DNA of 64,000 nt. Source: Candidatus Omnitrophota bacterium (GTDB lineage: Bacteria > Omnitrophota > Gorgyraeia > Zapsychrales > Zapsychraceae). The stretch covers positions 128,061 to 192,060 of the forward strand of contig JAGQKV010000002.1 of NCBI GenBank assembly GCA_020429915.1, in the 5' to 3' direction. This document shows positions 18,010-63,565 of this stretch, piece after piece. Numbering within the stretch: the stretch's first letter is position 1; the number at the start of each line of letters is the position of its first letter. Below the pieces are notes generated by a model. The model searched no databases. It was not told where the DNA came from and saw only the letters and a list, made by a program, of their open reading frames with translations. Both the position numbers and the translations under genes were made by a program.

Positions 18010-18456
18010 CTATTTTCGCTTTGCGGCTTTCTTTTTGGTCGCCTTTTTCTTGACGGCCTTTTTCTTGGTCGCTTTTTTCTTCACGGCCTTTTTCTTGGTC
18101 GCCGGCCTGCGAACGGCCTTTTTCTTGGTCGCCTTACGCTTGACAGCCTTTTTCTTTGTTGCTTTCTTCTTGACGGCTTTCTTCTTGGTTGCTTTCTTGG
18201 TTGCCTTGCGTTTGGTGGCCTTACGCTTCTTTCCCCCGCGAACCATTTTTGCGCTGGAGATGTCACCATTCTTATCTATGAAGTATAGATAGCCTGGTTT
18301 CTTCTTCACTCCGACCTTAGCAACCTTTTTCGGCTTACCACCTTTTTTGCTGCCGCGGGCCATCTTCGCGCAAGAAATGTCGCCATTCTTATCGACAAAG
18401 TAAAGGTATCCGGATTCTTTCTTGATACCGATCTTTGCCACTTTTTGCGTAGCCAT
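18010..18456 (-). CDS. Lysine-rich histone H1-like / nucleoid-associated basic protein with tandem repeats
   Basis: 148 aa. Two N-terminal about 37-aa repeats (IGIKKESGYLYFVDKNGDISCAKMARG and VGVKKKPGYLYFIDKNGDISSAKMVRG) and a C-terminal (KKAVKKKATKKKAV)n tail. Encoded by tandem approx 30-bp DNA repeats. Confidence 0.6.
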   Translation of the reverse strand: MATQKVAKIGIKKESGYLYFVDKNGDISCAKMARGSKKGGKPKKVAKVGVKKKPGYLYFIDKNGDISSAKMVRGGKKRKATKRKATKKATKKKAVKKKATKKKAVKRKATKKKAVRRPATKKKAVKKKATKKKAVKKKATKKKAAKRK

Positions 18457-55646: not shown

Positions 55647-57137
55647 TTATCCGACACTTCCCTCGAGTTTCATTTCCAGCAGCTTGACAGCCTCCACGGC
55701 AAACTCGAGAGGCAATTCCTTGAAGACTTCCTTGCAGAAGCCGTTAATGATCAAACTGATCGACGCCTCCAAGTCGAGACCGCGGCTTTGCAGGTAAAAT
55801 AACTGCTCCGCGTTGATCTTGGAGGTGGATGCCTCATGTTCCATGGTCGCCGAATTATTGTTGATTTCGATATAGGGGAACGTGTTGGCCGCGCACTTGT
55901 TCCCGACCAGCATCGAATCGCACTGTGAGAAATTACGGGCGTTGTCCGCACTCGGCAAGACTTTTACCAGCCCCCGATAGGTATTGTTGGACTCATCGGT
56001 AGAAATCCCCTTGGACACGATGGTGCTGGTGGTATTTTTACCGATGTGGATCATCTTCGTACCGGTATCGGCCTGCATGCGGTGATTGGTCAGCGCCACC
56101 GAGTAAAACTCGCCAACGGACTTGTCGCCCTGCAGGATGACGCTCGGATACTTCCATGTGATGGCTGATCCGGCCTCGACCTGGGTCCAGGAGATCTTGG
56201 ATTTAAAACCGGCGCACTTGCCGCGCTTGGTTACGAAGTTATAAACCCCGCCTTTGCCGTCCTTGTCTCCGGAATACCAGTTTTGCACTGTGGAATACTT
56301 GATTTCTGCGTTGTCCAGGGCGATCAGTTCGACCACCGCCGCGTGCAGTTGGTTTTCGTCGCGGCTCGGTGCCGTGCAACCTTCCAGATAACTGACGTAG
56401 CTGCTGTCCTCCGCGATGATCAACGTGCGTTCGAACTGTCCGGTACCGGCCGAATTGATACGGAAATAAGTCGACAGTTCCATGGGGCAACGCACCCCCT
56501 TGGGAATAAAACAGAACGAACCGTCGCTGAAGACCGCCGAGTTCATGGCGGCGAAGAAATTGTCCGTGTACGGCACGACCGAACCCATATACTTCTTGAC
56601 CAGTTCGGGATGGTGTTCGATGGCCTCGCTGATCGAACAGAAGATCACGCCGACCTTTTCCAGTTCCGACTGATGGGTCGTTCCCACCGAAACGCTGTCG
56701 AACACGGCATCCACGGCCACTCCGGACAGGCGTTTCTGTTCGCTTAAGGGAATGCCGAGTTTTTCGAAGGTCTTGAGCAGCTCAGGGTCGACTTCGTCCA
56801 GACTCTTGGGGCCCTCCTTTGTGCCCTTGGGGGCCGTCCAGTAGCTGAGGGCCTGGTAATCAATCGGACCGTAGTTGAAGTTCGGCCAGTGCGGCTCCTT
56901 CATTTGAGACCAATGCCGGTAGGCCTTCAGTCGCCATTCCCGCAACCAGTCCGGTTCCTTCTTGATGTCGCAGATTTGATGGATGGTCTTTTCCGTCAGG
57001 CCCGGTTCGAGGCGGTCCGTTTCGATATCGGTATACCACCCGTATTTGTAATCGCGGGATGAGAGCGCGTTTTCTTCGATGGTGCGTTCATTAAGCAGTT
57101 TGTCTTCAACAGCTTTGTTCATGGGTTCATCCTTCAT
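55647..57137 (-). CDS. sufB: Fe-S cluster assembly protein SufB
   Basis: SufB/SufD family with the conserved C-terminal region. Probable start [15 protein letters not shown] overlapping the rrf2 stop. The ORF-track start at 57284 adds about 49 non-homologous residues. Confidence 0.9.
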
Positions 57138-57601
57138 TGTGAGTTTGATTCCTGAAGTTGTTCCTTTTGCCGGATCTTCTTTTCCTTGGCATGCTTGGTC
57201 TGGATCAGGTCGCCGATCATAACGGTATCGAAAACGACGTTGATCTGCTCGTTCAACGTCAGCATCGGCGAGATAATATGGCACGTTTGACTGATATCAC
57301 AGGTCGAGTAATCTCCGTGAAAGCAATTGGCGATCTCGATCGGTCCGACGATTAACAGCGACAATTCGCGCAACGACAGGGTGTTGAGGTCCTTGACGAT
57401 CAGATATCCCCCCCGTGCGCCCTGTTCGGCCTGGAGGATCCCGTTTTGAGACAGAATCTGCAAGACCCGAGACGTCGGATCGAACGGGGTCCGGTAGATA
57501 TCACATATCTCCTTGGCCGAAGTCAGCTGCCCGGGCTTCTTGTGGCTCATGTGCTTGAGGGCTATCAGTGCGTATTCTATTTTTCTGTTGATCTTAAACA
57601 T
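57134..57601 (-). CDS. Rrf2-family transcriptional regulator (IscR/SufR-like) with a cysteine cluster
   Basis: 155 aa. N-terminal wHTH ([18 protein letters not shown]) and C-x7-C-x5-C ([18 protein letters not shown]) like the IscR cluster ligands. First gene of the suf operon. Confidence 0.8.
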
Positions 57602-57603
57602 AA

Positions 57604-57635
57604 GTCGGGATACGGGATATGTGATACGGGATACG
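57604..57635. repeat. Left inverted repeat of IVS-like cassette 1 (GTCGGGATACGGGATATGTGATACGGGATACG)
   Basis: Pairs with 58061-58091 (reverse complement GTCGGGATACGTGATACGGGATAAGTGATAC). Each arm contains two direct GTGATACGGGATA-like sub-repeats. Starts 2 nt upstream of the rrf2 ATG. Confidence 0.7.
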
Positions 57636-57651
57636 AACTGGTGGCGCTACT

Positions 57652-58005
57652 TTAAAGCAGGCGATTTCGTAGTCCTGTAAGCATTTTCCCTATGTCTTCA
57701 GCTTCGGCGAATAATTTATCAAAATGGGATTCTGTTAAGTACCCAAGATCTTTGCTGAGAATAAGATGATACTTAGTTTCCTGCAAAGAACCTTGGGAAA
57801 TCTCCAAAAATCTGGCAAAATCTCGGGTCCTCTTTCGGTGACCTTCCGCGATATTGGCTCCAACCGAGGCACTTGAGCGCCGGATTTGGCTTGTTAGGCC
57901 AAACATTTCTTCGCGTGGAAATAACTTTGATGCGGAGTAGATCTCAATTGTCAGTTGGTGCGCTTTTTTCCAGACCCGAAGGTCCGTAAAATTTGAAATT
58001 TGCAT
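57652..58005 (-). CDS. Four-helix-bundle protein, TIGR02436 / 23S rRNA-IVS protein / Avd-like family
   Basis: 117 aa. WKKAHQLTIEIY, GLTSQIRRSSASVGANIAEG and RDFARFLEISQGSLQET family signature. Paralogue at 60942-61298. Confidence 0.75.
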   Translation of the reverse strand: MQISNFTDLRVWKKAHQLTIEIYSASKLFPREEMFGLTSQIRRSSASVGANIAEGHRKRTRDFARFLEISQGSLQETKYHLILSKDLGYLTESHFDKLFAEAEDIGKMLTGLRNRLL

Positions 58006-58060
58006 ACCATCCCCTTTCGTTTTCGAAGCCGGGGGATGGTAGCTCCGTAGTAAACTGTTC

Positions 58061-58091
58061 GTATCACTTATCCCGTATCACGTATCCCGAC
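58061..58091. repeat. Right inverted repeat of IVS-like cassette 1
   Basis: Reverse complement matches 57604-57635 with a few mismatches. Lies 20 nt upstream of the pcd stop codon. Confidence 0.7.
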
Positions 58092-58110
58092 TCGAATGCG
58101 AGCCGGCCGA

Positions 58111-58470
58111 TCAATTTTCACCCTTCAGGTCCGGCGCAAGTTCACCCACTTTCGCCGCCACGATAAAATCATTCTCCGACAATCCGCCGATGGCGTGGGT
58201 GCTGAGGACGATGCGCAGGTTACGGTATCCGGTCAGGTGAAGGTCCGGGTGATGGTCCTCGTCTTCGGCGATGCCGGCGACCTGGCCGATGAAGTCCACC
58301 GCCGCCATAAAGTTCTTCATCCGGTAAGTGCGTGAGATACTCTTACCCGATTCGTCGAGTTCCCACAGCGGCGTCATTTTCAAAAAGCCCCGGGCCTCCA
58401 TCTCCGACATGGGAGCGGCATGGCCTTCGCACGGCGCGCATTTGCGTTGCGTCAACGGGTTATCGGACAT
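58111..58470 (-). CDS. pcd: Pterin-4a-carbinolamine dehydratase
   Basis: 119 aa. DCoH signature (EDEDHHPDL...LSTHAIGGLSENDFIVAAK). Confidence 0.85.
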   Translation of the reverse strand: MSDNPLTQRKCAPCEGHAAPMSEMEARGFLKMTPLWELDESGKSISRTYRMKNFMAAVDFIGQVAGIAEDEDHHPDLHLTGYRNLRIVLSTHAIGGLSENDFIVAAKVGELAPDLKGEN

Positions 58471-60662: not shown

Positions 60663-60919
60663 TGGCCCGCAAAAAATTCTCTCAAGCCCAAAACGCGCCG
60701 TTTGTCATGACCATGAAACCGGGGCGCTATGCCTGGTGTTCATGCGGCGAATCCCGCAAGCAACCCTTCTGCGACGGTAACCATGAAGAAACCGGCATGT
60801 TTCCGGTCGTGGTTCATATCGATCATGAGCAGGAGGTGCGGTGGTGTGGGTGCAAATCATCGGAATCGGCGCCGTGGTGTGATAATACGCACCTGAAGTT
60901 TCTGGAGGGTGGTGAGTGA
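60662..60919 (+). CDS. CDGSH-type domain protein with degenerate motifs (CDGNH, CDNTH)
   Basis: CSCGESRKQPFCDGNHEE and CGCKSSESAPWCDNTHLK. Start overlaps the upstream stop (TGATG). Confidence 0.7.
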   Translation: MARKKFSQAQNAPFVMTMKPGRYAWCSCGESRKQPFCDGNHEETGMFPVVVHIDHEQEVRWCGCKSSESAPWCDNTHLKFLEGGE

Positions 60920-60938
60920 TGAGTGCTGTGTGATGATC
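60905..60938. repeat. Left inverted repeat of IVS-like cassette 2 (GGTGGTGAGTGATGAGTGCTGTGTGATGATC)
   Basis: Pairs with 61357-61388 (reverse complement GGGTGATGAGTGGTGAGTGATGGGTGATGATC). Overlaps the last codons and stop of the CDGSH-2 gene. Confidence 0.7.
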
Positions 60939-60941
60939 CAG

Positions 60942-61298
60942 TTAGCGGGATTCTAGTTTTGATCTCAATCCATGTAACATCCGTCCCACTTCCTCCGCTT
61001 CTTCGTACATTCTTCTGGACTCCGCTTCCTCCAAGTACCCCAAATCACAACTGAGTATGAGATAGTATTTTATTTCTTCCAAAGAACCATGTGATATTTG
61101 CAGAAAGCGGGCAAAGTCTCGAGTTTTTTTCTTCTTTCCTTCCGCAATATTGGCGCAAACTGAAACCGCAGCTTTACGGATTTGACTCGTGAGAGAGAAC
61201 TCCTCTGATTGAGGATAATCTCGGGTGGCTTTGTAAATGCATAATGTTAATTGGTGGGCCTTCTGCCAGACGTACAAGTCTTGAAATTCTCTGATCAT
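60942..61298 (-). CDS. Four-helix-bundle protein, TIGR02436 / 23S rRNA-IVS protein / Avd-like family (second paralogue)
   Basis: 118 aa. WQKAHQLTLCIY, SLTSQIRKAAVSVCANIAEG and RDFARFLQISHGSLEE. Confidence 0.75.
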   Translation of the reverse strand: MIREFQDLYVWQKAHQLTLCIYKATRDYPQSEEFSLTSQIRKAAVSVCANIAEGKKKKTRDFARFLQISHGSLEEIKYYLILSCDLGYLEEAESRRMYEEAEEVGRMLHGLRSKLESR

Positions 61299-61356
61299 AA
61301 TTTCCCTCCTTGCTTGAATTACCGAGGGGAAACGAGAATTCTATGACACCCAATAC

Positions 61357-61388
61357 GATCATCACCCATCACTCACCACTCATCACCC
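61357..61388. repeat. Right inverted repeat of IVS-like cassette 2
   Basis: Reverse complement of the 60905-60938 arm. Ends 1 nt before the tautomerase stop codon. Confidence 0.7.
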
Positions 61389-61568
61389 TTACGCAAGAAA
61401 CTTATCCCCCTTCGCCCAATTCTCCCGCTCCACTTCGTCGATCACCAGATACGTGCTTTCCTTGGGTTTGTTGCAGACGTCGAGCATGGTTTGGGCGAAG
61501 CTGGCGGCGATTTTTTGCTTCTGCTCTTGGGTGAGTTTTCCGGCCACTCTGAGGCTGATGTACGGCAT
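61389..61568 (-). CDS. 4-oxalocrotonate tautomerase-family protein (59 aa); absent from the ORF track
   Basis: Reverse-complement translation MPYISLRVAGKLTQEQKQKIAASFAQTMLDVCNKPKESTYLVIDEVERENWAKGDKFLA, with catalytic Pro at position 2 and a beta-alpha-beta 4-OT pattern. Confidence 0.65.
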   Translation of the reverse strand: MPYISLRVAGKLTQEQKQKIAASFAQTMLDVCNKPKESTYLVIDEVERENWAKGDKFLA

Positions 61569-63387: not shown

Positions 63388-63565
63388 TAGTGATTGGGGA
63401 TCCGTCGACTCGGCTCGGGATTGAATCTGCTAATCTTTGCAGATGGTGAGCGAAGTCGAACCATTTGGGATTTGAATGTACTTCACGGTTGCGCCTAGAA
63501 CCCCAGTCCTGTCTCGGGAATGACTGTGGTCCAACTTTTCAAATCCCCAATCACTAATCACTAAT
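63388..63565. repeat. Long-range inverted repeat (TAGTGATTGGGGAT ... ATCCCCAATCACTA) enclosing about 150 nt between nadA and metX
   Basis: 14-bp arms with one mismatch at 63388-63402 and 63550-63565. Internal hairpin ATCTGC-N8-GCAGAT at 63425-63444. Confidence 0.4.

Follow-up and report, generated by a model that had tools for sequence, protein, structure and literature searches.

S23p-family genes enclosed in heptamer-repeat arms at operon junctions: a proposed IVS-type cassette between pcd and rrf2-suf in an Omnitrophota bacterium

Intervening sequences (IVSs) have so far been regarded as a peculiarity of rRNA genes, and S23p proteins as a family of unknown function. The IVS in the 23S rRNA gene of Coxiella burnetii is 428 nt long and is closed by a terminal 28-bp stem, within which RNase III cuts; two or three tandem GACAGAT heptamers precede the ATG of its S23p gene, the product of which is, according to the same study, probably not produced in vivo (PMC4990558). 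Members of the S23p family have further been reported inside insertions of the 16S and 23S rRNA genes of CPR bacteria and between cmr3 and cmr2 (PMC3936711). In a search that covered the literature in part, we found no published account of S23p cassettes outside rRNA, of heptamer arms as a family-wide feature, or of a preference for operon junctions.

The locus described here lies in a stretch of 64 kb (64,000 nt; hereafter the window) from a Candidatus Omnitrophota bacterium (GCA_020429915.1). A four-helix-bundle gene of the S23p family (PF05635/TIGR02436; 57652..58005, minus strand, 117 aa) is situated between the upstream host gene pcd, encoding pterin-4a-carbinolamine dehydratase (58111..58470, minus strand), and the downstream host gene rrf2 (57134..57601, minus strand), the first gene of rrf2-sufBCDSU. 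The gene lies between the two arms of an inverted repeat. Read in the direction of the ORF, the 5' arm (58057..58092, minus strand) is G-rich, with the sequence GGGATAC GTGATAC GGGATAA GTGATAC, and the 3' arm (57603..57638, minus strand) is C-rich on the sense strand. The arms are 36 nt each, 86% complementary and spaced 418 nt apart, and each consists of about four tandem heptamers in which GATACGGGATA is repeated with a period of 7 (or 14; 4.3 and 3.9 copies according to TRF). The ORF, the inverted repeat and the tandem-repeat nature of the arms had been pointed out in the initial annotation and are all present where it placed them, with arms of 36 nt in place of the estimated 32 bp or so. 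With an alignment score of 47, compared to a mean of 16.7, a 99th percentile of 25 and a maximum of 39 among 429 shifted-geometry controls, the inverted repeat is far above chance expectation. The pcd stop codon (58111-58113) is followed after 18 nt by the 5' arm, and the rrf2 ATG (57601) begins 1-2 nt beyond the 3' arm; no Shine-Dalgarno sequence is left upstream of rrf2 next to the cassette. The predicted fold of the cassette RNA is closed by the arms (-166 kcal/mol, z = -5.5). Within it, a local hairpin of UACCAUCCCC and GGGGAUGGUA (58005..58041, minus strand; 10/10 bp) is predicted to sequester the Shine-Dalgarno sequence, which has a duplex energy of -8.0 kcal/mol, together with the ATG of the ORF. 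Candidate sites for an own promoter or terminator of the cassette were no commoner than in shuffled sequences.

An S23p ORF placed in a loop, an inverted-repeat stem and heptamers are thus common to this element, hereafter cassette 1, and to the Coxiella IVS, which has counterparts in Leptospira, Brucella and Xanthomonas, and the likeness to 23S rRNA IVSs that had been proposed for the locus is well founded (PMC4990558). The two are of similar length, with 428 nt for the Coxiella IVS and about 490 nt for cassette 1, and differ in the host RNA: the Coxiella element resides in helix 45 of the 23S rRNA, whereas cassette 1 lies outside the 23S helix 25 or 45 location, in a presumed mRNA between two cistrons, flanked by pcd and rrf2. 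A further difference concerns the ORF, which in Coxiella is thought to be decaying but in cassette 1 has a strong Shine-Dalgarno sequence and shows the signature of purifying selection. Excision by RNase III has been observed for the Coxiella IVS, while for the cassettes described here we infer it by analogy. Our preferred explanation, to which we assign a probability of roughly 60%, is that cassette 1 is an IVS-type insertion, consisting of a promoterless S23p gene enclosed in heptamer arms, which is transcribed by read-through, is processed at its stem and occupies a pcd-rrf2 junction that originally measured a single nucleotide.

A second cassette of the same geometry is located 3 kb away (60906-61389, minus strand), downstream of a tautomerase gene (61389-61568). 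Its 5' arm, GGGTGAT GAGTGGT GAGTGAT GGGTGAT (61357..61389, minus strand), begins at the tautomerase stop codon, the 3' arm spans 60906..60938 (minus strand), and the enclosed four-helix-bundle gene (60942..61298, minus strand) encodes a protein of 118 aa with 60% identity to that of cassette 1. The distance of 418 nt between the arms is identical in both cassettes. The heptamers of cassette 2 (GTGATGA/GTGGTGA) are unlike those of cassette 1 (GGGATAC/GTGATAC), yet its arms stay complementary to each other, and its predicted fold likewise closes on the arms (z = -3.7). The ORF of cassette 2 is preceded by an even stronger Shine-Dalgarno sequence (-11.9 kcal/mol), which is predicted to be sequestered, along with the ATG, by a hairpin of GUUUCCCCUC and GGAGGGAAA (approximately 61301..61333, minus strand). 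This CCCC...GGGG hairpin is found again, with compensatory changes in its flanks, not only in cassette 2 but also in the related cassettes of L088, L094 (at both sites), L096, L098 and L099. A third heptamer inverted repeat, TAGTGAT TAGTGAT TGGGGAT ... ATCCCCAATCACTA (63388..63563, minus strand), lies past the NadA stop codon, has 141 nt between its arms and lacks an ORF. A GTGATCA-type array similar to this repeat is present at the NadA site of the relative L094, and an array is absent from that site in L087 and L089; the ORF-less element is probably a decayed or miniature relative of the cassettes. Stringent heptamer arrays were detected nowhere else in the 64 kb of the window and in none of the compared stretches of cassette-free relatives.

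Assignment of the encoded proteins to the S23p/four-helix-bundle family, as suggested initially, is supported by scores far above the cut-offs of both PF05635 (E = 1.2e-39 for cassette 1; 135.2 and 126 bits for the two proteins, cut-off 33.8) and TIGR02436 (129.8 bits for cassette 1 and 119.7 bits, cut-off 24). The R-x3-S-x3-N-x2-E motif is kept as R43, S47, N51 and E54, and the cassette protein matches the structures PDB 2gsc (XCC0516; E = 1.5e-16) and 2rld (E = 5e-8). In this lineage, all six ORFs are intact, and comparison of the cassette 1 gene with its orthologue in L088 yielded a pN of 0.155 and a pS of 0.756, the latter being saturated. Judged by these rates, the cassette protein is under purifying selection and, since the ORFs are intact and pN is well below pS, it is functional. 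No matches to PADLOC defence-system models were obtained at E <= 0.01, and no phage copy of the gene was found. Avd, the accessory protein of diversity-generating retroelements (DGRs), has a homologous four-helix-bundle fold and forms a pentamer, and the cassette proteins show weak matches to bAvd (PF22296, below the cut-off), PHROG 3206 and NF033474, so that the locus might be taken for the remnant of a DGR with the protein as its Avd subunit. The NF033474 scores of 28.5 and 42.6 bits, however, fall far short of the cut-off of 80, the cassettes lack a reverse transcriptase as well as template and variable repeats, no reverse-transcriptase motifs occur in the window, and the neighbours are housekeeping genes, all of which makes a DGR origin scarcely credible.

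The gene order from NadA to sufBCDSU is kept in related Omnitrophota, which allowed us to compare the insertion sites. Site 1, between pcd and rrf2, is occupied in the window and in L087, L088 and L094 and empty in L176, L177, L178 and L089, where the distance from the pcd stop to the rrf2 ATG is 1, 1, 6 and 45 nt, respectively, and the two genes are co-directional. Thus, the idea of a cassette that is present in some relatives and absent from the orthologous region of others is borne out by these four empty sites. In contrast, the suggestion of the initial annotation that the element had entered the promoter region of the suf operon has to be abandoned, since co-directional empty sites of 1-45 nt identify the cassette as an insertion at an intercistronic pcd-rrf2-suf junction. 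At site 2, located between a tautomerase or methyltransferase gene and a CDGSH gene, a cassette is present in the window, L094 and L176, and L087 and L089 have an empty site. Cassette proteins from the same site share 64-77% identity, compared to 55-62% across sites, which suggests that the cassettes are old and have mainly been inherited vertically, with losses. The site-1 protein of L087 is equally distant from every other cassette protein, and L088 carries a solo GTGATCN array, which resembles the arms of L087, at around 365-395, outside the GTGATAA-type 5' arm of its own cassette. Together, these two observations suggest serial insertion or cassette replacement at the pcd-rrf2 junction.

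The largely vertical inheritance and the purifying selection on the protein would also be expected of a resident gene with slippage-prone repeats which form a stabilising or attenuating hairpin in the mRNA, the absences then being secondary deletions rather than empty sites of an insertion element; it would fit, too, that according to work cited in PMC4679880 no long simple repeat is commoner in bacteria than the heptamer. We nevertheless consider this improbable, as the empty sites are 1-nt junctions of the kind typical of coupled genes, the same cassette design recurs in unrelated operons of many phyla, and members of the family are known from inside rRNA genes (Coxiella 23S; CPR 16S and 23S). 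Heptamer copy number did not vary among near-identical population contigs. L094 has six GTTTAAA/GTTTAAC heptamers in a solo array directly where the DAO gene ends (5373-5417), for which a partner arm was not seen. The neighbourhood is otherwise plastic, since in L177 DAO and nfu are separated by an inserted MazE/PIN toxin-antitoxin pair and a gene for sulfite reductase (3246-3939).

To determine how general this organisation is, relatives were collected in a scan at one genome per species, resulting in 80 loci with 42-59% identity from Acidobacteriota, Patescibacteria, Planctomycetota, Verrucomicrobiota, Bacteroidota, Chloroflexota, Alphaproteobacteria and others. Among the 79 analysable genome loci (77 retrieved loci and the two window cassettes), 66 have inverted arms that score above the 99th percentile of the controls. 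The best arm period is 7 in 49-50 of these 66, whereas 7% of control segments have this period. The arms have a median length of 31.5 nt and are separated by a median of 410 nt, and in 53 of the 66 the 5' arm contains more G than C on the sense strand. An independent set of metagenome loci gave a similar picture, with arms at 36 of 65 loci, a period of 7 in 33 of the 36 and an excess of G over C in 31. The heptamers themselves are lineage-specific and include GCGAATA, GGCAGTA, GTGAGGC, TAGCCAT, GTTGAGA and TTAGACT, among others. Hence, as far as these sequences indicate, the conserved trait is the complementarity of the arms and their period, and not the arm sequence.

The position of the cassettes relative to the adjacent genes follows a similarly strict rule. 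The median distance from the end of the upstream ORF to the 5' arm is 2 nt (interquartile range -2 to 30), and that from the end of the 3' arm to the start of the downstream ORF is 6.5 nt (interquartile range -6 to 29). Co-directional neighbours are present upstream at 57 of 64 loci, downstream at 51 of 62 and on both sides at 46. Sampled hosts are tight operon pairs such as nuoC|nuoD, dprA|topA, cysD|cysN, livG|livF and rsmI|metG; to these are added the genes for the beta and alpha subunits of oxaloacetate decarboxylase (oadB|oadA), an ABC permease and its ATPase, and, in Xanthomonas, accB|accC. Rfam rRNA models found no match in the window and none at 13 related loci with ORF-free flanks. 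The survey thus suggests that IVS-type elements live mainly in mRNAs, where the genes of core operons (nuo, acc, cys, liv, suf) are most tightly joined. At eight alphaproteobacterial loci (L021, L034, L051, L062, L064, L066, L068 and L070), the neighbouring ORFs agree in size, with about 200-350 aa upstream and 396-398 aa downstream, and the heptamers vary (GCGAATA, GGCAGTC, GTGAATA). Pfam confirms a nuoC|nuoD junction for L021, and for the other seven this assignment is drawn from ORF length; if all share one junction, they would offer a natural set of co-varying arms from a single orthologous site. Two neighbouring four-helix-bundle genes were observed on the metagenome contigs L135 (2414-3155), L174 (67-847), L116, L120, L150 and L158, and in L135 and L174 both genes are directly in tandem, forming cassette arrays.

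Based on these features, the following mechanism might be envisaged for an IVS-type insertion in an mRNA. The cassette would be transcribed by read-through from the pcd-rrf2-sufBCDSU operon, and in the resulting RNA the arms would pair to form a stem of 30-36 bp. The base of this stem would rejoin the pcd stop (18 nt off) and the rrf2 start (2 nt off), and we propose that the insertion is tolerated because the two are reunited in this way. More generally, arms that are flush with stop and start codons point to a way of tolerating insertions between coupled genes. In analogy to the 23S rRNA IVSs, the stem is a probable substrate of RNase III, cleavage of which would release an ORF-bearing RNA of about 450 nt and either separate the pcd and rrf2-suf messages or redefine their ends. 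The local hairpin hiding the strong Shine-Dalgarno sequence may, in addition, gate translation of the four-helix-bundle protein. Expression of rrf2-suf in this organism probably depends on folding and processing of the cassette RNA. Loss of the Shine-Dalgarno sequence of the downstream gene holds for rrf2 but not in general (median -2.75 kcal/mol, compared to -3.0 kcal/mol in controls), and because downstream genes generally keep theirs, the idea of restored coupling draws on the geometry of the junctions. We also considered that the 5' arm might supply stops in all three frames. This proposal is weak: three-frame stops were present in 35% of arms, compared to 11% of shuffles, yet 21% of arms are free of stops, and 58 of 101 heptamer units contain a stop where 47% would be expected.

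An explanation at the level of DNA deserves consideration, in which the cassette is a mobile element and the heptamer arrays are its terminal inverted repeats or binding sites, possibly for the pentameric four-helix-bundle protein, pairing in the RNA being incidental. G-U pairs in the arms occur at nearly the same frequency when counted on the sense strand (113) and on the antisense strand (107; Wilcoxon p = 0.12), and duplex energy is likewise unbiased by strand; as no strand bias is apparent, arm complementarity may be selected or generated in the DNA. Gain and loss at two sites, with the apparent replacement at site 1 indicated by the equidistant L087 protein and the solo GTGATCN array of L088, would be in line with such an element, as would the occurrence of copies on cyanobacterial conjugative plasmids. 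In Nostoc, Trichormus and Calothrix, the arms of plasmid-borne cassettes are again built of heptamers. The great majority of plasmid-borne family members stem from heterocystous cyanobacteria, with 21 from Nostoc and 4 from Calothrix among others, and their plasmids are often conjugative. Heterocystous cyanobacteria are also known for tandem heptanucleotide (STRR) repeats.

Correia elements (NEMIS) of Neisseria are small inverted-repeat insertions which are co-transcribed in mRNAs, and cleavage of their terminal-repeat stem by RNase III alters the fate of the mRNA. They are free of ORFs, duplicate a TA target and have terminal repeats which are conserved over hundreds of copies and are not heptameric. 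The cassettes resemble them as inverted-repeat insertions and differ in possessing an ORF and heptamer arms. REPtrons consist of a RAYT gene, encoding an HUH transposase, flanked by inverted REP sequences, which are palindromes. A comparable arrangement, a gene flanked on both sides, in inverted orientation, by a short repeat which is itself abundant throughout the genome, is found in Xanthomonas, where the cassette unit GGGAATC also occurs in about 186 genomic arrays, reminiscent of RAYT/REP; the cassette protein, however, is without a known catalytic fold, and the repeats are tandem heptamers rather than palindromes. Several further features disfavour a mobile DNA element. The arms differ among copies, even between the two within the window, the flanks are orthologous, and neither a transposase nor a target duplication nor near-identical copies in other surroundings were seen, the site spacers being too diverged for alignment in the case of the target duplication; the cassettes thus do not behave as MITE- or IS-type transposons. 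Similar cassettes in differing flanks were sought in the genome and metagenome sets and no convincing case was obtained; recent mobility does not emerge from these sets, since cassettes that resemble each other have, with few exceptions, flanks that are orthologous. Moreover, a DNA transposon would need neither an ORF oriented along the host operon (57/64) nor arms that directly abut the stop and start codons. Taken together, we regard a mobile DNA element as an unlikely, if serious, explanation for the cassettes.

The Xanthomonas cassette links the elements described here to repeats that have been described previously. The homologue corresponding to XCC0516 of Xanthomonas campestris sits between accB and accC (L183 2924-3372, GCA_035012225.1), with arms of GGGAATC GGGAGTG GAGAATC GGGAATC and their complement, and its 3' arm extends up to the accC ATG. 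In Xanthomonas, GGGAATC repeats are present at about 186 sites and form 70-75 convergent pairs per genome (PMC4692102). Together with the GGGGAYT repeats of Nostoc, they typically comprise four units, are preferentially located between aligned ORFs and are mostly transcribed; no mention of PF05635 or of an enclosed gene was found in the text of that study (PMC4692102). Unit length and the typical number of four units are equal to those of the cassette arms, and the GGGAATC unit itself is that of the Xanthomonas cassette. XCC0516, a protein with a solved structure but without a function, is now tied to a published, abundant and unexplained class of heptamer repeats. As G4 structures are formed in vitro by repeats of both the GGGAATC and the GGGGAYT type, these have been read as G-quadruplex elements (PMC4692102), and a regulatory role of this kind might be extended to the arms described here. 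The window arms, however, carry just two GGG tracts each, the conserved feature is the complementarity of both arms, and many units are without G runs (TTAGACT, TCAGAAT, GTGATAA), so that a G-quadruplex cannot be the general explanation; as an account of the cassettes we consider it very improbable.

It might further be speculated, with the odds in our estimation somewhat against it, that PF05635 cassettes, S23p-bearing 23S IVSs and abundant heptamer inverted pairs belong to a single family of IVSs that can reside in any transcript, in which the pentameric protein would recognise its own four to five or so heptamers, and the arms would zip the insert shut, thereby restoring the junction or rRNA helix or excising the insert. 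That the five subunits of a pentamer correspond to the four to five heptamers of an arm is an attractive idea and may apply here. The heptamer pairs would then include the GGGAATC pairs of Xanthomonas, the repeats of heterocystous cyanobacteria and the ORF-less element of the window. If true, this would account for the fact that, among the long simple repeats of bacteria, heptamers are over-represented most strongly.

Two minor elements of the window remain to be mentioned. A c-di-GMP-I riboswitch (RF01051, 57.5 bits; 215-296, minus strand) is the sole Rfam match, and a tandem repeat with a period of 30 (or 15), about 5.8 copies and 77% matches, which is probably coding, is located at 18024-18198.
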